IMG/VR virus record: IMGVR_UViG_3300034060_000702
Span: 1-64,000 of that record
Strand: one strand, 5' to 3'
Origin: a virus
DNA length: 64,000 nucleotides
Part shown: piece after piece, positions 40,103 to 63,156 of the stretch
How positions within the stretch are numbered: position 1 is the stretch's first letter
Layout: the number at the start of each line of letters is the position of its first letter
The notes under the pieces: generated by a model
Databases searched by the model: none
The model's input: the letters and a program-made list of their open reading frames with translations, nothing else
Told to the model about the DNA's origin: nothing
Program-made: the position numbers and the translations under genes

Positions 40103-40780
40103 TTATCTTAAAATATGTTGTGAATCATCATTTACATCACTTGGTATTTTACCAAGAGTCATCATTTCTTGTTGAACCATTTGTTCTATTTCAGCAAACA
40201 AATGAACAGGAACATTGAATGTTGTGTTTTGTTTAATCTCACAACTAGTGTCTTCTCCATCTTCTTTACAGTAACCTTCAGTTGAATCTTCAAACATTCC
40301 TTCTATAGATACAGACTCCCATCTTATATCTGGAAAGTATAAGTATCCATTTTTATACCAATAGTATTTGTTTTTATTATATTTGAAATGTGTAGAGTTA
40401 GTCATTGCTTGATAAAGAGTTGCTTTAGTTTGAGTAAAAGCTTGTCTACCATCAATAGATGTAATGTTTCGAAAGATAGGACCAATAGATCCACTGAATA
40501 CTTTAGGAAGCTTCTTGTAAGTTCTCATGATTTTACAACCCGTTTTTATACCAGCACAATCAGCTTCGATTCTATCAACCTCAACCAACTCAACATAAGG
40601 CAAGACTTCAAACAAACTGTCATAGTTCATGAGTTTGTTTTCATTATCTTGTCTTCTCATTATAGCATAAGCATACTTATTTATAATGGAATAGATAGTT
40701 CTATCAGTTAGAAAAGCATCTTCAGAAACTGCTTTTAAAATATTTCTTATTCTTGAAATCGATTCTCCAATTGTCATCAT
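40103..40780 (-). CDS. Tail ring protein
   Basis: 225 aa; RTYKKLPK, YYWYKNGYLY, GMFED and a C-terminal DVNDD; sits between the IHF-like and tubular genes. Confidence 0.6.
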   Translation of the reverse strand: MMTIGESISRIRNILKAVSEDAFLTDRTIYSIINKYAYAIMRRQDNENKLMNYDSLFEVLPYVELVEVDRIEADCAGIKTGCKIMRTYKKLPKVFSGSIGPIFRNITSIDGRQAFTQTKATLYQAMTNSTHFKYNKNKYYWYKNGYLYFPDIRWESVSIEGMFEDSTEGYCKEDGEDTSCEIKQNTTFNVPVHLFAEIEQMVQQEMMTLGKIPSDVNDDSQHILR

Positions 40781-41268
40781 ACTTCTTCAATTTGTTGTTT
40801 ATAATTTAACTGCACACATCTAGCCCAGTGTTTTTTAAAGTAAGAACTTGCTGTCTTCCTAAAGCTTCCTGTTGCCGAAAATGAAAACAGTCTTGAATAC
40901 TTTACAAAGTTCTTAATGTTGTTATAGTAAACTATGCGCATCAAGTTGTTATCAGTATCCCAATTTTTAAAGTAAACAGTTCTACCTTCTTTTATTGAAG
41001 AGTTAAAATCTACACTTTTCTTATTTGATTTACCTGCATTATTAATAACTATCTGTCCAATGTTTTCTGGTAATACTACACCATAGATATTCTTTGTAGT
41101 TTCTTCGCAAATATTATCATTAAACTTTTTTATAATCTTTATGAAATCGCTTTGTAAAATAACACCATGTTCAGAGTACTTTCGATTGAATAAGCTAATA
41201 TCTTTTCTTGTTACTACTTTTCCTTTGAATTCTCTTACTCTTGGCTTAGTTAAATTTGGCTCTTGCAT
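40777..41268 (-). CDS. IHF/HU-like small basic protein (crAss-type)
   Basis: 163 aa, basic; VVLPENIGQIVI...SVDF...VYFKN pattern; conserved position upstream of the ring genes in crAss-like phages. Confidence 0.55.
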   Translation of the reverse strand: MQEPNLTKPRVREFKGKVVTRKDISLFNRKYSEHGVILQSDFIKIIKKFNDNICEETTKNIYGVVLPENIGQIVINNAGKSNKKSVDFNSSIKEGRTVYFKNWDTDNNLMRIVYYNNIKNFVKYSRLFSFSATGSFRKTASSYFKKHWARCVQLNYKQQIEEV

Positions 41269-41270
41269 AA

Positions 41271-41282
41271 ATATATAATATA
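41271..41282 (-). promoter_or_regulatory. Putative late promoter element TATATTATATAT
   Basis: The exact 12-mer also occurs at 51323-51334 and 60313-60324; here it ends 2 nt before the ATG and lies downstream of a terminator. Confidence 0.5.
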
Positions 41283-41315
41283 GTAATTTATTATCAAAAA
41301 TACAAATTATATATT

Positions 41316-41344
41316 AAAAACAAACCCCGGATCTCTCCAGGGTT
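41316..41344 (-). terminator. Rho-independent terminator
   Basis: AACCCTGGA-GAGA-TCCGGGGTT-TGTTTTT, after the tail-collar gene. Confidence 0.75.
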
Positions 41345-41387
41345 CATTCTAGTCAGCCACATTAAACCAACCTCTCTGTGACATACT
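41316..41387 (-). ncRNA. Candidate 3'-UTR-derived small RNA antisense to two head-gene leaders
   Basis: The transcript contains GTTGGTTTAA-TGTGG-CTGACTAG, complementary to the leaders at 57009-57034 and 60293-60313, and ends in a terminator. Confidence 0.4.
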
Positions 41388-42554
41388 TTAGAATTTTATT
41401 AAGTATCTCATTGACACACCTTTTTGTCTATTATCAGTAGATACAGTAGCTGTACCTGCTGCAGTTACAACAGTAATTTGTGGTTGTCCAACAACTACAG
41501 GACTAATATTATTATTACCTACAAGAAGACCGGTATTAGTAGTATCGCAACCATAGGGTATTGCATCAATTAAATTTGGAACTGCAAAAGCTAAAACATT
41601 TACTGCTGTATCATATATGTTACCTATTACTGCAAATAGTTTTGGATAAGAAGCTTTTAATTTATAAGAACCATCACATAACAACCAACCTTCTGGAAGT
41701 ACACCATTAGGGAAACCAGCCCAAGAAATAACTGTACCAACAGGTACTAATCCTACACCTGCGCCAACTTCTTCACCAGGAGTCGGAATGTTTGCAGGTA
41801 ATGCATCTAAACCAGCAAGAACATAAGACACTACCACTTCATCAGTTGCAGTTACTTGAGAACCATTACCAGCTAAAGGAGAAACTGTAAATATAAAATA
41901 AGTTGGAAACTCAACATAATATGTAACCAATGCTGCTACAAACTTACTAGGATCATTGCTATTTGAAATTTGCAATATAGTTCTAAGTTTAATAGCGGCT
42001 AACCATCCACCAGCTGTTCCTGAAGGAGCAGTAACATTTGTTCCATAACCAAGCAAACAAGTCTTACTTATGATTATTGTACTAGTTAATAAAAATGTAG
42101 CATCAAGACTTACTGTACCTTGTACAGTACCAGCACCTCTTTTGTATATTAAACTGTTTGCTCCAGGATTTCCTTGTAAACCATTAGTACCTGGAATACC
42201 AGAAGGTCCTGCCATACCTTGTGGTCCTGCAGGTAATCCAATATTCATATTGTAATTTGGGGATGTTCCTGTTATTGTAACAGTACCTGAAGAACCAGGA
42301 GCAAGTGTTGTTACACCACCAATAGCAAGATTAGGTGCAGGTCCAGTAGCTCCCATAGGACCTGTTAATCCTGGATTACCTTTTGGTCCAGCAATACCTG
42401 TAGGACCAACTGCTCCTGTAGGTCCAGGTAATCCGCTTGCACTTCCTGATGGTCCAGCGGGTCCAGCTGGTCCTTGAAATCCACGTGGTCCTCTTGCAAC
42501 AGCTGGAGCTGCGCAAGAACCACCACATGAACTTTGATTACATTTTACACACAT
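41388..42554 (-). CDS. Collagen-repeat tail fibre protein with a phage tail-collar domain
   Basis: GXY repeats; C-terminal VPVGTVISWAG...PEGWLLCDGS...YPKLFAVIG...FAVPNL collar motif; Cys-rich N-terminus. Confidence 0.85.
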   Translation of the reverse strand: MCVKCNQSSCGGSCAAPAVARGPRGFQGPAGPAGPSGSASGLPGPTGAVGPTGIAGPKGNPGLTGPMGATGPAPNLAIGGVTTLAPGSSGTVTITGTSPNYNMNIGLPAGPQGMAGPSGIPGTNGLQGNPGANSLIYKRGAGTVQGTVSLDATFLLTSTIIISKTCLLGYGTNVTAPSGTAGGWLAAIKLRTILQISNSNDPSKFVAALVTYYVEFPTYFIFTVSPLAGNGSQVTATDEVVVSYVLAGLDALPANIPTPGEEVGAGVGLVPVGTVISWAGFPNGVLPEGWLLCDGSYKLKASYPKLFAVIGNIYDTAVNVLAFAVPNLIDAIPYGCDTTNTGLLVGNNNISPVVVGQPQITVVTAAGTATVSTDNRQKGVSMRYLIKF

Positions 42555-51321: not shown

Positions 51322-51322
51322 A

Positions 51323-51334
51323 ATATATAATATA
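51323..51334 (-). promoter_or_regulatory. Putative late promoter element TATATTATATAT
   Basis: Exact 12-mer ending 1 nt before the ATG of 50797..51321. Confidence 0.5.
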
Positions 51335-51349
51335 ATAAATTTTTGTCAA

Positions 51350-51979
51350 TTAAGGACAACAAATTTCTGAATTATTTACTAAATCCATTTTAAGCAATTG
51401 ATGATTAATAATGGTTTCCATTAAATCATCCATGCAACAAAATTTAATTCCCATTTTCTTTTCCATTGCTGATTTAAAAGTTAAGTCAGCAAATCTACAC
51501 ATAGTAGTTTCAACTTTAGTTTCATCTAATCCATTGTAATAAGAATCTAAAAATAACTTTTTAGAATCGATTTCATTTGTTGCAGGAACTGGAATATCTG
51601 GCATACATTCCTTACAAGTTTTTACACAAGTATATTCAAAGAAAAAATTTTCAAATGGAATGTCATAAGTTTCCTCATTACAAATTTCCGCAGCTTCAAC
51701 AAACTTAAAACAACCTGTAAGTTTACTTAGATTAATATCTGTAACAGATGAAACAACTACCATTGCTAGATCATCAGGATGAATGTTATTACTCATCTTT
51801 CCTGTGAATACTAATCGCAATGGTAAATTGTTTATTTTACATGGAGTTGAATCGCAACATTGCACTAGTGTATAGTATTCAATATTTGGTCCAGGACTTA
51901 CACTATAAGAAGTAGCATAGTCTTCTAAATCAAAGTGTAAAAATCTTGGTCTAAACCCTAGTATAATGTCAAAGTTCAT
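51350..51979 (-). CDS. Cys-rich hypothetical tail-region protein
   Basis: ORF track; 209 aa with multiple CC and CxxC motifs. Confidence 0.6.
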   Translation of the reverse strand: MNFDIILGFRPRFLHFDLEDYATSYSVSPGPNIEYYTLVQCCDSTPCKINNLPLRLVFTGKMSNNIHPDDLAMVVVSSVTDINLSKLTGCFKFVEAAEICNEETYDIPFENFFFEYTCVKTCKECMPDIPVPATNEIDSKKLFLDSYYNGLDETKVETTMCRFADLTFKSAMEKKMGIKFCCMDDLMETIINHQLLKMDLVNNSEICCP

Positions 51980-52692: not shown

Positions 52693-52728
52693 AAAAAAGG
52701 GGAATAGAGAAAAACTCCATTCCCCTTT
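52693..52728 (-). terminator. Rho-independent terminator
   Basis: AAAGGGGAATGGAG-TTTTT-CTCTATTCCCC-TTTTTT. Confidence 0.8.
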
Positions 52729-56002: not shown

Positions 56003-57001
56003 TTATTTACTCCACAACCCATCAACATTTGCCATCAATCGATCTAATACTTCTTCATTAGAAGGATTCAACAAGTATTCAATCATATCGGAAACATTTC
56101 TTCCTAACATAATATTTGTACTTGCTTCATACATCATGCTATCTCCTTTAGGAATAATGTATTTAAAGAAGCATGCATCCTTAACAACCGCTTTGATTTT
56201 CAAATAATCATTTGCTAATTCACTTGTTTCAATGAATAAGCGAGCAGTTCTTTTCTTATCTTGATCAACACCAAGACCATTGATATACTTATCTAAACCA
56301 TCATAAATAATATCAGGTAATGTTCTGTTACTAAATTGAACCGAACTACCTTCAAGACATTTGATCATGTAGAATAATTTTCTTGGGTTTTCAGTAGAAA
56401 TGTTTTCTAAGATAGCCAATGCTTTATTTCTAAGTTTAACAGTTGACATTTGAGTAGAGATTGTATCAATCTGTCTATCTAAATACCATTTCTTTTTGTT
56501 TCTTTTACACTCTTCTAAACTAGAAGCTACTAAAGAGAATCCACCAGCTTCTACAGCTTTGATAATAATCAAGTGATCAAGATTATTAATTGGATCTAAA
56601 ACAATTTCATCATTGCTTAATCGAATATTTATCTTACTCCAGATTTCAGAATTATCTGGTTTAAACATTTCAACTTTAGTCCAAAAATCTTTATCTTCAA
56701 CTTTTAAAGACATGTTAAAAGCTCTATCTCTTTCAAGTAAAACAATAGTTTCTCTGATTTCTTTAATAACAGCTTTCTGTTTTTCAGGATCACTAATTTT
56801 TTTGATGTCTGGAGCAAACTCATTTAATCCAGTAACATACCTTGTTTTACCATTTTGTTCGATTGCTGCAAGTGGTTCTACTTGCTGTGTTCCAGGAAAT
56901 ACAACATAACTGTATTTTTCTAATCCCATATTTTCAACTGTGTTATCACAGAATGGTTTAATAGAAATTTTACCTGAATACTTAATTGGTTCTTTACTCA
57001 T
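56003..57001 (-). CDS. Conserved crAss-like head-module protein (332 aa), function uncertain
   Basis: RYVTGLNEFAP and DFW motifs; lies between the MCP and the adaptor gene. Confidence 0.55.
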   Translation of the reverse strand: MSKEPIKYSGKISIKPFCDNTVENMGLEKYSYVVFPGTQQVEPLAAIEQNGKTRYVTGLNEFAPDIKKISDPEKQKAVIKEIRETIVLLERDRAFNMSLKVEDKDFWTKVEMFKPDNSEIWSKINIRLSNDEIVLDPINNLDHLIIIKAVEAGGFSLVASSLEECKRNKKKWYLDRQIDTISTQMSTVKLRNKALAILENISTENPRKLFYMIKCLEGSSVQFSNRTLPDIIYDGLDKYINGLGVDQDKKRTARLFIETSELANDYLKIKAVVKDACFFKYIIPKGDSMMYEASTNIMLGRNVSDMIEYLLNPSNEEVLDRLMANVDGLWSK

Positions 57002-57051
57002 TTTATTTGTTGGTTTAAATTAATAACTGACTAGGTTATAAAGATAATAAT

Positions 57052-57077
57052 AAAAATAACCTCCGAAGAGGTTATTT
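57052..57077 (-). terminator. Rho-independent terminator with a cUUCGg tetraloop
   Basis: AAATAACCTC-TTCG-GAGGTTATTTTT. Confidence 0.8.
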
Positions 57078-57363: not shown

Positions 57364-58980
57364 TTATAAAGAATAACCAGTGATTGGGTTTCTCATAACG
57401 ATTTTCAACACTTTAGTTGGATCTTCTACTTTGATCGCAGGCATTGCTTGTGTCATGTAGATTTGGTATCCATTGAAGTTACCTGAAGATTGGAACCCTT
57501 GAGTTCTTCCCATGTAATCCATAGAACCATTAACATATCTCCAAACAAGGTCTTTGTTCCAAGCACATTTCAACAATTTGATGTTATCATTACCATTTTC
57601 AGTAATATCAAATACGATGAATGAGTAAGAAGACAATCTATGACCATCAATGATTGGGTTCTCAATATCATTGTTTTGTAAGTTATCGAATGCTGGATTC
57701 AATACAAACTTGATATTAGCTAAGAAAGGAATCATGTACTCTGTGAAAGAGAATCCGAATCCTAAATCCATTCCTTGACCTTTGATAGCATCAAGTTCTT
57801 TAGCGTTCATAACCAATCCAGAAGAGAAAGCTTCGCGCTTAATCGCTTCATTGATCATTCTCATACCACCCATACCTGTTTGAACAATCAATGATCTTTT
57901 AGAATCTGGTCCTTGGAAATCAACTTTACCATTGTAGAAGTTGAATAATTCAGAACGGAAGATGTCTAATTTGAAATCAGATTTGTTGTATACATGTTTG
58001 AAAGACAAATCTAATTGTTTCCAAAGTCCAACTGATAATCTTAAATCATCTGGCCCATCTTGTTTGATTCGACCACCTTTACCCCACATTAAGTAAGTTT
58101 CGATGTCATAAGCAATTTTGGACAAGTGAGCTGCTTCCAACTTAGTGATAAAAGTTCTAACTAAGTTACCATTAGCTTGCGCTTTTTTGATATAGTCAGC
58201 ACCTTTAGCTTTCACCATTCCTTCTAAAGAAGTAATTGATGGATCTAAACTTGTGTCAAAAGATTTCCATAACTCTGTTACAGGTACTTTTCCATCTGCA
58301 TTCATACCACCTTTTTCCATCAACTTCACTTTAGAAGAGATTGAATAATGAACGTGTGCATCTGCATTACCAACATAGTTGTAGAACTCTCTTGTTGTAG
58401 CAGTAGTTGTAAGATCAGAATATCTTTCACCATATTCACCTCTTGCAGAACCTACTCTGAAATAGAATGATTGTGATGTCAAGAATGCATTATCAAATAC
58501 TGCATCTGAATCATTGTTTACTAACTGTACTGTATAGATAACTCCATCAGTTAAATCAAGAATTTCCTCATCAGTGATGAATAATTCTTTACCATTGAAC
58601 TTATCATAAGTGATGATGTCACCATGACCAAAAGTTCTTTTGTTCAATTTGATTTTAAATGGAGTTCCATCTAAACCTTTCATTGAGTTGTTAGAATCTA
58701 AATCCTCAACAATGAATGGAAGCTCTTCAGAAACTGGTGTGCTCCATTTGTATTCACCTCTTGGGTGTTGAACGTCAATAACATTCTTACCACCAAAAGA
58801 AGACATTTGATAAAGAGGCATCTCAACTTTTTTAACTTGAGCCCATAATTCTACTGGACCTAAATCATCTGGTTGTGCATCTTTCATCAAATTCATCATG
58901 TGATAAGAATCTACATGCGAACTTGCTGTGTAATGGTTATCCCGAAGGAACATTCCATTATTTAAAACTGGTGTACTCAT
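57364..58980 (-). CDS. Major capsid protein (crAss-like, HK97 fold)
   Basis: 538 aa; portal-scaffold-MCP order; motifs YLMWGKG, GLWKQL, VQTGMGG and FVLNPAFD; biased codon usage; strong terminator. Confidence 0.85.
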   Translation of the reverse strand: MSTPVLNNGMFLRDNHYTASSHVDSYHMMNLMKDAQPDDLGPVELWAQVKKVEMPLYQMSSFGGKNVIDVQHPRGEYKWSTPVSEELPFIVEDLDSNNSMKGLDGTPFKIKLNKRTFGHGDIITYDKFNGKELFITDEEILDLTDGVIYTVQLVNNDSDAVFDNAFLTSQSFYFRVGSARGEYGERYSDLTTTATTREFYNYVGNADAHVHYSISSKVKLMEKGGMNADGKVPVTELWKSFDTSLDPSITSLEGMVKAKGADYIKKAQANGNLVRTFITKLEAAHLSKIAYDIETYLMWGKGGRIKQDGPDDLRLSVGLWKQLDLSFKHVYNKSDFKLDIFRSELFNFYNGKVDFQGPDSKRSLIVQTGMGGMRMINEAIKREAFSSGLVMNAKELDAIKGQGMDLGFGFSFTEYMIPFLANIKFVLNPAFDNLQNNDIENPIIDGHRLSSYSFIVFDITENGNDNIKLLKCAWNKDLVWRYVNGSMDYMGRTQGFQSSGNFNGYQIYMTQAMPAIKVEDPTKVLKIVMRNPITGYSL

Positions 58981-59011
58981 TTTTATTTATTTATTTATTG
59001 TTACTTGTTAA

Positions 59012-60286
59012 TTACCTACCAAAGATACTTTTTTGTGATCTTGTGATAGGTGGTTTTCTTGCACCTGCTGCTCCTCTATTATCAGTTTGTGAACCTGCAC
59101 CGGATGAAGCTGTTCTTGAAGCTTCTTCTGTTTTCAACATTCTAACTGTTTTTGCATTTGCTTCTTTGTTACCAATTTGCTTTACAGAACTTCTGTAACC
59201 ATCTGGATCACTCAATAACCATAATGCTTCTGCAACTAAACCTGGATTAGTTTTTTCTCCAAATTGGTGTTGTTCTAAATAGTATCCTAAAGCATTTGTC
59301 GGTCTTCCTTTTGAATCCTGATACTTTGATCTATCAATCAATCCATAATATAATGCATTTTGTACTTTCGGATTTAATGGAATACCATTTAATTCAGTTG
59401 TATTTAATGCATTGAAAACAGTTGTTTGATAAACTTTAGTTTGCTCTTGTTTTCTATGTTCTGCCTTTTTTTGATCATCCAACCTATGTTGAATTATCTC
59501 TGCTTGTTTAGCATCTAATTTCGGTTTGTATCTTAATGCATATTTCTCAAGATCACCTCTGTCTTTCAACATGTTTATTTCATCTTCAATTTCTTCCGCA
59601 GAATCAACATCTAATGAGTTTAACCATTGGCGAACAATAACCTCTTGATCATTTGGATTGTCAACATCCAAATCAAAAGTTTCTTGAGCTTTAGCTAACT
59701 GTCCAAAAACAGTTTTAAGGTCACTACCTCCATTTAAAGCATAACTTACTACAGCTTGAACTTCTTCCGGCAATGTTTGAAACAATTCAACTGGTGCATT
59801 TTGTGCAGTTGTTGAAACTTGGTTTTCAATATTTGCAGTAATTAATTCTTTAAAATCATTTACTGTATAATCTGATAAAGGTTTGTCATCATCAAATGCC
59901 TGTAGGATGCCCTCTTCAATCAAACTTGTTGCTGCTTCAATCAAAGCATCTTTAGATAAAGAAGGGCGACCTCCTTTATTTTGAGATTTCTTTGCATCTG
60001 CATCATCATCTTCATTGTCAAGTTCATCATCTACTAATTTACTGATGTCATCATTTGTAATAACAACATCTTTCAATGCATCTGGATTGTTCTTGTCAAT
60101 AGTATCATCATCTAAAAATGATGTATCAACTTTACCTCCATCAAACATACTAGGTTTAACTGGTTCATCTGTACCAATTATTGATTCTGTAACTCCTAGT
60201 AATTCATCTAAATTGTCAAAGTCTACTTCTTCTACATTTGCAGAAGCCGATGTTGCAGCCGCTGCTGCAGTTCCATTGTTTGTCAT
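59012..60286 (-). CDS. Putative scaffolding / head assembly protein
   Basis: Acidic, helical 424-aa protein between the portal and MCP genes, with a basic C-terminal tail. Confidence 0.6.
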   Translation of the reverse strand: MTNNGTAAAAATSASANVEEVDFDNLDELLGVTESIIGTDEPVKPSMFDGGKVDTSFLDDDTIDKNNPDALKDVVITNDDISKLVDDELDNEDDDADAKKSQNKGGRPSLSKDALIEAATSLIEEGILQAFDDDKPLSDYTVNDFKELITANIENQVSTTAQNAPVELFQTLPEEVQAVVSYALNGGSDLKTVFGQLAKAQETFDLDVDNPNDQEVIVRQWLNSLDVDSAEEIEDEINMLKDRGDLEKYALRYKPKLDAKQAEIIQHRLDDQKKAEHRKQEQTKVYQTTVFNALNTTELNGIPLNPKVQNALYYGLIDRSKYQDSKGRPTNALGYYLEQHQFGEKTNPGLVAEALWLLSDPDGYRSSVKQIGNKEANAKTVRMLKTEEASRTASSGAGSQTDNRGAAGARKPPITRSQKSIFGR

Positions 60287-60312
60287 AACTGTGTTGGTTT
60301 TAATTACTGACT

Positions 60313-60324
60313 ATATATAATATA
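60313..60324 (-). promoter_or_regulatory. Putative late promoter element TATATTATATAT
   Basis: Exact 12-mer directly upstream of the TAGTCAG...AAACCAAC leader of the scaffold-like gene. Confidence 0.5.
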
Positions 60325-60417
60325 AGCAAAAATATTCAATTTTAAATAATATATGTTTAACTATTTTAAATGAACTAAATATTAAGCGGTAGTATATGGT
60401 TAAAACCTAACAAATTG

Positions 60418-63156
60418 TTATTTGCTAGGTTTTTTATCATACTGATTTTTGTTTTCTCTTGCAACTTGTAGATCTATTTGTTTATCCATTGCAGCTTGGT
60501 TAAGTTTCTGTTTTTCAATCTCTAACTTTTGTTGTGCAAGATTTGTTCTAGTTGCTTCTTTTTCTTGATTGAATCCCATAGTTTCTTGATACTGATCATT
60601 TTTACGCATTGCATCTAATGTATCAGTAAAATCAGATTGTTGATTTTGATTGATGTCTTGTTGAGCACCATATCCTGCAGCTTTAATTTCTGCTTCAAGT
60701 AATCTGTTTCTTCTATCTTTTTCTTTCTCTCTAGACTCATGATCAAACACCATTTGTTTCTCTTTTTGTCTTGCTTGAATTTCTGCTTGTTGAGCTTCTT
60801 GTGCTTGTTGTTGTTGTGCTTGTTGTTGAGCTTGAGCTTTAGCCTCAATAGATTTAAGAGCATTGTTAAGAGAACCAATTGAATCTGCCTGCATAACACC
60901 TCCCAATTCATAAATAGATGCACCAGTAGTGTTGTTTTGTACAAACATTTGTTTTAACTGTTCAAGAATAGTTCTATGATTTACATTTGTAGTACCATAG
61001 CAATTCAAATCTGCTAATAACAAATCTGTACCATTGATTTCGAAATTAGTTCTTTCATCTGGAGAAATCATTCCTTGTAACTTCACTGAAGGTTTTGTAG
61101 AATGATAAAACTGTGCAAGATCAGTTCTCATCTGGTGAACTCTAGGCATTAAGTGATCTGAATGCTGAATGAAGTAAACTTCAGTCTGTGCAAAAGAACC
61201 AGTCATTGCTTGTTCTACTCCGGTAGCAGTATTTATTTGACCAAGTTGTTGGCCCATTCTTTGAGGATTTAATCCTACAACTTCCATTGCTTGTTGCTTA
61301 AAATAATTTGCAAGTTGAATTCTTGATTGCAACCTTGCAGTTTGTTCTAAGTTTAAAGTTTGGTAGTGTTGAAAATTAGATGTTGTTTCTGTATTTTGAA
61401 TAGAAGGATCTAAGGGCAACATTGAAAAATCTTTCATCGCTACATAAGCTTTAGCAAGATTCCCTTTACCCCAGTCTTCTCCCATTGAATGTCTTGGTAA
61501 TGCATTTTGGTCTAACACCACAACAGTACCAATTTCATCTATAAGAATATCTGCTATCTGATTGTTACATAAATTGTATCCAATCTGTGCAGGCTTCATC
61601 TGGTCAACCAATGATGTAGATTTAGTATTTCTATCCGAGAATACTCTTCCTTCAATTGGTAACTTACAACCATACATTGAAGAATCTCCTTTAAATTGAA
61701 ATCTTAATGGTCCAGGTGTAGGTCTTCCAACTCCTATGTACATAGAATCAAAATCACCATCATCATTTAAGTAATTAAATACAGATCTATTGTTTCCAAT
61801 TTTTACACCAGCATTAGTTTGGTTAATCCAAATCCAATCAATATGATCTCCAAATACAAGATTATCTGCACTTCTTACATCAGTAAATGACATGTTGTAA
61901 ATTGGATTTGTTCTAACTACATAATTCTCATCAATGATTTCAGTCACAACTTGACCATCTTCATCAATTTTAGTTAAGTTACCAATTCTTCTTTGTGTTT
62001 TCCAATATACATGAGTAACTCTTAACATTTCAGAGTTATTGATATATCCTGTGTGCTCACTTTCTCCAAGTACCCAAGATACAATATCGCTTGATTCAAT
62101 GTTTGAATCGATATGAGCTAAGTGTCTTTTCATATCAACACCCATAACTCTATTCTCATCATAGGTTTCATCGGAATTGTATAATGAACCATCATTTGGA
62201 ATACCATCAACAAGATATTTTGCTGAACTGGAAGGATTCAATCTTTCTAGTTTTTCCAATTGTTCATCAGTCATCAAGTAACCATGTATATCAATTACAT
62301 CTGCAATAGACATCATATCAATAAAACCAGAATAGTTTCCTTGAGAAACATATTTAGTTGAAGGTGATTTATGGTAAAAAGTCAAAGCAGGATTCAATAC
62401 TTCAACATCATAGTCATCTTCAAGCATCCTAAAGTGCCAGAATTCCGAATCTGTAATTAAGGAATCTCTAAAAGCAACTTCTTCCAGTTCATCCATGTGA
62501 AATCTATTAACATCAATAGCATGTTGCTTAACAGCCCATTGCTCACTTAATGTTTGATATGATTTAGAATAGAACTTTTCAATTTGTGGTAATTTCTTTA
62601 ATGCTTCTGGATCGATTTGCTGTTTAGCTTCTTCTGATTCAGGATCCATTCCCATCTCAATCATTTTAGATATAAGTTTCTGGGAAGCATCTTGAATTAA
62701 AGCACTACCAATTTCATCAGCTTTCTTATTCATTATCTCATTGTATGAATACTCATCCAATGCGCGATAATCTATTTTAGTATTTCTTTTAGCAAACTCA
62801 CTAACAAGTGTATTTACAATGTTTGGAATTATTGGATAGAATTTTAATTCCATTGCAGAATCTGTATCTTCTACAAGTACATCCAATATGTCAACCATAT
62901 CATTGTCTACTTCTGGAATATAATCAGTCTTATCAATTACACCTTTTGCAAGTTTGTAATTCTTCATCAATCTTCTTGACTTCTCTCTGATTTGTTTTAT
63001 CCCTTGCCATTCAATCCAATCAATGTTATGTCTATACCATTCTTCATCCTTTTCCTCTATAGGTAAGAACTGAATTGGTTGTGTGAATACATTATATCTA
63101 TTTTTATTTTTAGATTTTTTTCCACCTTTAAGGTCCATTGCATTTAATACTTCCAT
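60418..63156 (-). CDS. Portal protein
   Basis: 912 aa directly after the terminase; FYPIIPNIVNTLVSE, RVTHVYWK, SLVDQMKPAQ and PQRMGQ motifs; Q-rich coiled-coil C-terminal barrel. Confidence 0.85.
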   Translation of the reverse strand: MEVLNAMDLKGGKKSKNKNRYNVFTQPIQFLPIEEKDEEWYRHNIDWIEWQGIKQIREKSRRLMKNYKLAKGVIDKTDYIPEVDNDMVDILDVLVEDTDSAMELKFYPIIPNIVNTLVSEFAKRNTKIDYRALDEYSYNEIMNKKADEIGSALIQDASQKLISKMIEMGMDPESEEAKQQIDPEALKKLPQIEKFYSKSYQTLSEQWAVKQHAIDVNRFHMDELEEVAFRDSLITDSEFWHFRMLEDDYDVEVLNPALTFYHKSPSTKYVSQGNYSGFIDMMSIADVIDIHGYLMTDEQLEKLERLNPSSSAKYLVDGIPNDGSLYNSDETYDENRVMGVDMKRHLAHIDSNIESSDIVSWVLGESEHTGYINNSEMLRVTHVYWKTQRRIGNLTKIDEDGQVVTEIIDENYVVRTNPIYNMSFTDVRSADNLVFGDHIDWIWINQTNAGVKIGNNRSVFNYLNDDGDFDSMYIGVGRPTPGPLRFQFKGDSSMYGCKLPIEGRVFSDRNTKSTSLVDQMKPAQIGYNLCNNQIADILIDEIGTVVVLDQNALPRHSMGEDWGKGNLAKAYVAMKDFSMLPLDPSIQNTETTSNFQHYQTLNLEQTARLQSRIQLANYFKQQAMEVVGLNPQRMGQQLGQINTATGVEQAMTGSFAQTEVYFIQHSDHLMPRVHQMRTDLAQFYHSTKPSVKLQGMISPDERTNFEINGTDLLLADLNCYGTTNVNHRTILEQLKQMFVQNNTTGASIYELGGVMQADSIGSLNNALKSIEAKAQAQQQAQQQQAQEAQQAEIQARQKEKQMVFDHESREKEKDRRNRLLEAEIKAAGYGAQQDINQNQQSDFTDTLDAMRKNDQYQETMGFNQEKEATRTNLAQQKLEIEKQKLNQAAMDKQIDLQVARENKNQYDKKPSK

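Follow-up and report, generated by a model that had tools for sequence, protein, structure and literature searches.

Why does the 3' end of a tail fiber mRNA carry, in a hairpin ahead of its terminator, the complement of a motif that stands before the start codons of head genes in the same phage, and what would follow if the two RNAs met? We addressed this question in viral record IMGVR_UViG_3300034060_000702, of whose 82,460 bases the first 64 kb were analyzed (here called the window); the − strand carries every gene in it. The phage is contained in 21 runs, all of them freshwater or lake DNA metagenomes. Its portal and major capsid proteins match PHROG head families, the two genes downstream of the element's neighbor encode Pfam CrAss_Ring_2 and CrAss_Ring_1 proteins, and giant open reading frames (ORFs) of 4674 aa and 2369 aa come after the ring protein genes, so that by its gene content this is a crAss-like phage. 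No DNA similarity to isolated phages was found; the nearest isolate by capsid protein is a cyanophage (Leptolyngbya phage Lbo-JY46, 26% identity), which has neither the element described below (best match, E = 0.88 at 12.9 bits) nor the leader motif. The two indications of the host are leaders free of Shine-Dalgarno (SD) sequences and TAnnTTTG-like boxes, which suggest a member of the Bacteroidota. Bacteroidia ribosomes are reported to be blind to the SD sequence (PMC7797042), and translation and its regulation in hosts that do not use SD pairing are still an open question (PMC6847099).

The pattern TAGTCAG-N{4,14}-AAACCAAC has exactly three matches in the window, at 41350-41371 (+), 57009-57033 (−), and 60293-60313 (−), and none of 100 dinucleotide-preserving shuffles gave a match (0 expected). 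The original prediction, a bipartite motif present twice in sense and once in antisense orientation, is borne out by these exact matches, with the correction that the antisense copy starts at 41350 and not at 41349. The sense copies, said to end 6 to 7 nt before an ATG, end 6 nt before that of the 424-aa gene and 7 nt before that of the 332-aa gene (Table 1). The + strand copy is antisense on the mRNA, which there reads GUUGGUUUAAUGUGGCUGACUA; positions and fold agree that it sits, as claimed, between the stop codon of the tail-collar (388-aa) gene at 41388-41390 and the terminator. Scanning the genome for further leaders yielded a fourth sense copy beyond the window at G000:67966-67981, site D, where ATGTCAGAACAAACCAAC supplies an 88-aa gene with its start codon and the codons next to it, the motif spanning the ATG and codons 2 to 6 (MSEQTN). 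This gene is the first of an operon running to terminase and portal, and distant relatives retain AACCAAC inside the first codons of its homolog. The gap between the two boxes ranges from 3 to 11 nt. Two head genes had been named as targets; both leaders stand, but the set is wider, taking in the first gene of the packaging operon here and 3 to 9 genes per genome in relatives. Neither of the two head proteins could be assigned by homology: the 332-aa protein has no match in Pfam, PHROG, or the named Atlas clusters, its Atlas look-alikes being viral hypothetical proteins, and the 424-aa protein likewise has no Pfam, PHROG, or named Atlas cluster match, so that we infer its role as a scaffold from position and composition.

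Table 1. Positions of the hairpin-terminator element, the motif copies, and the genes and terminators around them
Feature	Position	Strand	Basis or remark
Whole element: short spacer after stop, hairpin, linker, terminator	41297-41392	−	Covariance model R1
Hairpin	41356-41382	−	Arms GUCACA (41377-41382) and UGUGGC (41356-41361), 15-nt loop (41362-41376)
Loop core GUUGGUUU, complement of AAACCAAC	41364-41371	−	
CUGACUA, complement of box TAGTCAG	41350-41356	−	Directly 3' of hairpin
Intrinsic terminator	41316-41342	−	Stem CCCUGG/CCGGGG (41325-41342), U tract (41316-41324)
388-aa tail fiber gene, 3'UTR bears the element	41388-42554	−	Pfam Collar and Collagen; PHROG tail fiber/collar families
Downstream operon start, conserved	40103-41268	−	Synteny in relatives
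163-aa gene	40777-41268	−	First gene of downstream operon
Tail ring protein 2	40103-40780	−	Pfam CrAss_Ring_2, 3.5e-24
Strong intrinsic terminator	52696-52728	−	14-bp stem, then T tract; located between element and leader A
332-aa gene, predicted target	56003-57001	−	Downstream of major capsid gene; no family match
Leader site A: TAGTCAG-N10-AAACCAAC	57009-57033	− (sense)	7 nt before ATG of 332-aa gene
Perfect 10-bp hairpin	57054-57077	Scores as terminator on both strands	T/A tracts both sides; directly upstream of leader A
Major capsid gene	57364-58980	−	Flanks 424-aa gene; leader 58981-59011
424-aa acidic scaffold-like gene, predicted target	59012-60286	−	Position and composition
Leader site B: TAGTCAG-N6-AAACCAAC	60293-60313	− (sense)	6 nt before ATG of 424-aa gene
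Portal gene	60418-63156	−	Flanks 424-aa gene
Site D, fourth sense copy	G000:67966-67983	−	About 4 kb past window end; relaxed pattern

Covariance model R1 scores the element in the window at 85.4 bits (E ~1e-22), and no other strong copy is present there. For the 81-nt 3' region the predicted fold is a 6-bp hairpin and then the terminator, at −30.8 kcal/mol (z = −5.2); the GUCACA/UGUGGC stem that had been proposed to expose the complement of the leader motif is part of this minimum-free-energy fold and presents GUUGGUUU, a loop core predicted to be mostly unpaired (0.66). UUGG in the loop conforms to the YUNR U-turn motif known from antisense loops that pair rapidly. In this phage 5 nt separate the stop codon of the tail fiber gene from the hairpin, and the hairpin is followed by the gene's intrinsic terminator, a G+C-rich stem-loop with a U tract that keeps its structure while its sequence varies. 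A small ORF was rejected for both strands of the element, where candidates have 5 to 20 codons and a frame that is not kept among four genomes. A search of Rfam 15 assigned the element to no family (best match, 18.5 bits, E = 0.53; gathering cut-off, 114).

The element was located in relatives with an alignment of ring protein 2 as anchor; the 163-aa protein, used as anchor, found none. In these relatives the genes for the 163-aa protein, ring protein 2, and ring protein 1 are syntenic and the upstream fiber gene differs, and the same module stands upstream of the ring protein 2 gene in dozens of contigs. Model R1, built from 23 sequences, gives 57 matches at E < 1e-3 (the window included) with one strong copy per locus or genome; at least 57 related contigs have the element, each genome a single time. 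The stems are diverse (GUCACG/CGUGAC, GUUACAG/CUGUGAC, UUAGUUG/CAACUAG, GCUACAG/UUGUAGC, AUCACG/CGUGAU, and an 11-bp version), and the loops of relatives always bear (U)UUGUUGGUU(U) or AGGUUGGUUU, with a terminator of variable sequence next to them; GUUGGU is invariant in alignment A2, and GUUGGUU(U/A/G) is retained in every relative listed. In the 57-sequence alignment, which was fitted to the model and thereby favors structure, although the stems were first seen in a model-free scan, 98.2% of helix 1 cells are paired and double-sided changes occur at 6/6 pairs, values reached by none of 500 shuffles, while a slid partner gives 37 to 57% pairing; helix 2, the terminator stem, has double-sided changes at 12/13 pairs with pairing kept. 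G·U or U·G pairs occupy about 15% of stem cells; on the opposite strand they would be A·C mismatches, and this indicates that the RNA is the transcript of the gene-sense (−) strand.

A median of 7 nt separates the upstream stop codon from the hairpin (47 loci), and the upstream proteins, compared over their last 100 residues, sort into 19 unrelated groups. The element is thus a 3'UTR module that stays put while fiber genes are exchanged; the few nucleotides between stop and hairpin cannot hold a conserved promoter for it. With a conserved, covarying hairpin this close behind the stop and a terminator behind it, the predicted terminated 3'UTR RNA holds across the family. The linker box, as CUGAC, UUGAC, or CUAAC, is found in part of the family and is absent in other clades. 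Some relatives (L185, L205, L211, and L216) have an additional zinc-ribbon-like gene that separates the tail module from the homolog of the 163-aa gene: the hairpin element of L205 lies further upstream, ahead of the inserted gene; L185 has a cut-off, weak partial match before it (18 bits, E = 0.057); and L211 and L216, which have the inserted gene too, gave no model match within the stretch examined.

The counterpart of the loop is a motif of translation starts. Seven genomes, complete or long, contain 95 sense copies of AACCAAC, and 30 of these end 0 to 15 nt before an ORF ATG, an interval that makes up 1.4% of the sequence in these genomes; the same interval captured 1/84 copies of GTTGGTT, 4/90 of the reversed word, and at most 5 of other non-overlapping permutations. 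We surveyed leaders in about 80 relatives located by their capsid protein, counting distinct leaders, and found AACCAAC within 30 nt of the ATG of the scaffold-like gene in 60/66, mostly 3 to 6 nt before it, and in 52/54 homologous leaders of the post-capsid gene of about 330 aa. The leaders of the capsid gene bear it in 0/80, though the genes on either side almost always do. Relatives have 3 to 9 AACCAAC-led genes per genome, some of them internal cistrons that start about 20 nt past the previous stop with no room for a promoter, which indicates that AACCAAC is read at the RNA or translation level and not as a promoter. In the leaders it is predicted to be 0.5 to 0.99 unpaired. Its complement GTTGGTT occurs in 0/57 Bacteroidota 16S rRNA genes, so that pairing with or mimicry of 16S rRNA is ruled out for Bacteroidota; only one hairpin-plus-terminator element per phage genome, the one described here, carries the complement of AACCAAC. 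In genomes G006 to G010, the leaders of a gene of about 338 aa often bear two tandem copies (e.g., AAACCAACAAAAACCAAC), which would offer two registers for loop pairing.

How well do loop and leaders fit each other? Among 101 ORF starts (mean duplex energy, −14.9 kcal/mol; SD, 3.8), leader A ranks first (−28.0 kcal/mol) and leader B second (−27.5 kcal/mol), with site D seventh and a 109-aa gene (G000:72669-72998, −) with the leader AAAACCAACAACCUCUC tied for fifth (−21.9 kcal/mol). The last of these leaders complements the loop and its 5' flank (GAGAGGUUGGUUU) with a 2-nt bulge. Recomputing the pairing gave two segments totaling 18 nt for the 57009 leader and 15 nt for the 60293 leader, in agreement with the predicted 10+8 and 8+7 nt. 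In every one of the 14 to 15 matched genomes, the element can form 7 to 13 contiguous Watson-Crick pairs with leaders of the same genome, built on a seed in which the invariant GUUGGUU loop is the complement of AACCAAC in initiation regions.

Because the 8-nt core never varies, classical covariation is inapplicable to it, and we turned to own-versus-cross comparisons. In these comparisons, all of which ignore shared ancestry, the longest match showed no difference (p = 0.50 and 0.16), two-segment complementarity was higher for own pairs with scaffold leaders (13.3 versus 11.7 nt, p = 0.007) and gave p = 0.06 with the post-capsid leader, and duplex energy gave p = 0.03 and 0.08. Individual lineages provide examples: in genomes whose flank is AUUGAC, the scaffold leaders carry GUCAAU, as opposed to CUGACUA and UAGUCAG in this phage; the genome with loop GUUGGUUG has leaders with CAACCAAC; and two genomes with loop GUUGGUUA have UAACCAAC in the post-capsid leader. 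The loop variants GUUGGUAU and UUAGUUGG come without matching leader changes. For the anticipated covariation between 3'UTR and leaders, signal thus comes from flanks that match in three lineages and from the scaffold-leader comparison, but not from the longest match or the invariant core, and we regard it as suggestive only. The loop/AACCAAC half of the proposed two-box pairing is family-wide, but the TAGTCAG/CUGACUA half belongs to this subclade, being absent or non-complementary elsewhere, with weak covariation with the leaders; other clades that lack this half stretch the loop pairing to 11 to 13 nt.

The reading that we favor, a well-supported candidate to which we attach moderate probability, is that of a 3'UTR-borne antisense RNA that occludes initiation regions bearing AAACCAAC. 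The tail fiber mRNA ends in a hairpin with GUUGGUUU in its loop, the short linker CUGACUA, and the intrinsic terminator, and this 3' end may act while still attached to the rest of the mRNA or after processing to a stable fragment. Its loop would base-pair with AAACCAAC 0 to 15 nt upstream of late-gene starts, or inside the first codons of one gene, the putative targets being the scaffold-like gene, the 332-aa gene behind the capsid gene, and the gene that opens the terminase/portal operon; in this subclade the linker would add a second pairing of 5 to 8 nt with GUCAG on the 5' side of the leaders. The duplex would occupy the place where the 30S subunit binds and so repress translation, coupling the output of head and packaging proteins to transcription of the tail operon. 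Pairing in vivo, action in trans, and repression over activation are what we infer from the sequences. Repression is the most likely effect, since the predicted duplex ends 0 to 7 nt before the AUG or, in the 88-aa gene, covers codons 3 to 6. The strong terminators at 57054-57077 and 52696-52728 suggest that leader A and the hairpin belong to separate transcripts and make action in trans likelier than folding within one transcript. The capsid gene is never among the predicted targets, whereas its scaffold partner is there almost without exception, and this suggests that protein ratios are controlled, not that the motif is a general enhancer. The scaffold mRNA is probably far more abundant than the tail fiber 3'UTR, which is a point against occlusion.

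The same pairing could instead have a positive outcome, stabilizing its targets or opening an inhibitory leader, so that transcription of the tail operon switches head genes on; we consider this unlikely. The scaffold leader here (60275-60319, −) offers the best case for it, with a predicted 9-bp hairpin (GUCA and UAAUU with AGUUA-UGAC) that holds AAAACCAAC in its loop and buries the AUG (probability unpaired, 0.08) and that pairing of CUGACUA with box 2 would open, and the boxes lie close to likely mRNA 5' ends. However, RNAalifold found no consensus pair in 13 related leaders, and we rejected the start-hiding hairpin as a conserved feature; leader A and capsid-type leaders are essentially unstructured (−2.9 and −1.1 kcal/mol), and a duplex 0 to 7 nt before the AUG normally blocks 30S binding. 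Somewhat more doubtful again is that the complementarity is coincidental, the hairpin being a 3'-end stability or processing element or a protein site and AAACCAAC an independent enhancer. Stem-loops before terminators are common mRNA 3'-end stabilizers, A/C-rich and G-poor leaders suit hosts that do not use SD pairing (PMC6847099), and a core without covariation, together with longest matches no better between own pairs than chance, is what coincidence would leave. On the other hand, for two invariant 8-mers to be exact complements is improbable (~1.5e-5 per 8-mer pair), complementarity reaches 10 to 13 nt by different routes in different clades, a stabilizer needs no invariant loop sequence, and the most highly expressed gene, that of the capsid, is without the supposed enhancer in all 80 cases.

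Read at the DNA level, the motif might be an operator that works in either orientation at the starts of late transcription units, with another copy upstream of the ring protein operon, a reading we hold to be very unlikely. Sites A, B, and D do each stand at the start of a transcription unit beside promoter-like AT-rich elements, and the antisense copy precedes the start codon of the following operon by about 100 nt; yet a spacing of 3 to 11 nt between the boxes lacks the fixed geometry of half-sites, AACCAAC is tied to start codons, internal cistron junctions included, and not to promoters, the reverse orientation almost never occurs near starts (1/84), and the single reverse copy is always in the loop of a covarying stem that uses G·U pairs, for which DNA has no need. 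A bolder proposal, which we judge highly improbable, makes AAACCAAC at its SD-like spacing the phage's own initiation code for a late regulon and the hairpin RNA the trans-acting reader of that code, either as a surrogate anti-SD that would deliver mRNAs to ribosomes or as a master off-switch for the regulon. To the form in which AAACCAAC is a phage ribosome-recruitment signal and the hairpin RNA bridges mRNAs in trans to SD-ignoring ribosomes we would assign slightly less probability still. The spacing of mostly 3 to 6 nt before the ATG, the lack of GTTGGTT in Bacteroidota 16S rRNA, the loop as each genome's only such hairpin-plus-terminator complement, and ribosomes blind to the SD would all suit a surrogate anti-SD; against it, nothing points to ribosome binding by the hairpin, expression of the capsid gene and of most others does without the motif, and no precedent is known.

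The antisense reading, by comparison, has several known counterparts. CpxQ, SroC, and DapZ are bacterial base-pairing small RNAs derived from 3'UTRs; like them, the present RNA would be a regulator within an mRNA 3'UTR that shares its intrinsic terminator and directs a short conserved seed against several target mRNAs near their start codons. It differs in being phage-encoded, in a probably Hfq-less host, with its seed in a hairpin loop, and in its predicted targeting of one shared motif that would mark a small late-gene regulon. The staphylococcal Rsa small RNAs and RNAIII use C-rich (UCCC) loops to pair with the SD sequences of many mRNAs, and the likeness here is a conserved loop motif set against a translation-initiation element shared by several mRNAs, whereas the motif is a phage-specific A/C-rich one in place of the universal SD and the RNA is a 3'UTR in place of a stand-alone gene. 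Among phages, the c4 antisense RNA of P1 and P7 and the CI RNA of P4 are immunity regulators of temperate phages, processed from their targets' own operon. Like the RNA predicted here, they are structured antisense RNAs with two short segments directed against a leader, overlapping the ribosome-binding site, but the present RNA lies in a late structural operon of a crAss-like phage and has no sequence or Rfam relationship with them. Pairing of a 3'UTR with the ribosome-binding region has been described for icaR mRNA of Staphylococcus aureus, where an anti-SD motif in the 3'UTR pairs with the 5'UTR (PMC3868564), and as a 5'/3'UTR interaction in hbs of Bacillus subtilis (PMC5737220). In those mRNAs, as predicted here, the complementary 3'UTR controls translation or stability; theirs, however, is an intramolecular pairing through the SD, and here it would reach other genes past at least one strong terminator through a non-SD motif. 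Intramolecular pairing of the icaR type was rejected for the element: the leader of the 388-aa gene is without AACCAAC, and the terminator at 52696-52728 separates leader A from it.

Our literature search on small RNAs of crAss-like phages, their late promoters, and the motif found no regulatory RNA or such element described. On present evidence the element represents a new RNA family whose presumed mode of regulation is known, in a phage group and host context for which the papers searched describe none. The analysis provides an RNA family that covaries and has a working covariance model, a defined motif of 7 to 8 nt that is specific to start regions and to particular genes across hundreds of environmental phage contigs, and an exact complementarity that joins the two. 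If the pairing is real, the genes with AAACCAAC would form a small phage regulon from which the capsid gene is excluded, and this exclusion would point to control of the scaffold-to-capsid ratio, not to simple high expression. The notion that a phage 3'UTR sets the stoichiometry of head, packaging, and tail proteins thereby becomes testable with reporters and compensatory mutations.

Several smaller observations concern the sequences around the leaders. A promoter-like block, TATATTATATAT(T), abuts the ATG of the 163-aa and 174-aa genes (41269-41300 and 51322-51350, −), whose mRNAs may be leaderless or have very short leaders, and at site B the same block likewise comes before TAGTCAG. In some relatives GTCAG lies only about 14 to 17 nt past the terminator equivalent to 57054-57077 and overlaps a TAnnTTTG-like box; GTCAG may there be left out of the transcript. 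Finally, the word TAGTTAAACA occurs about 50 to 55 nt upstream of GTCAG at sites B and D (~60354-60363, −, and G000 ~68030, −) and is retained in close relatives, and it could be a separate late-promoter or regulator element.
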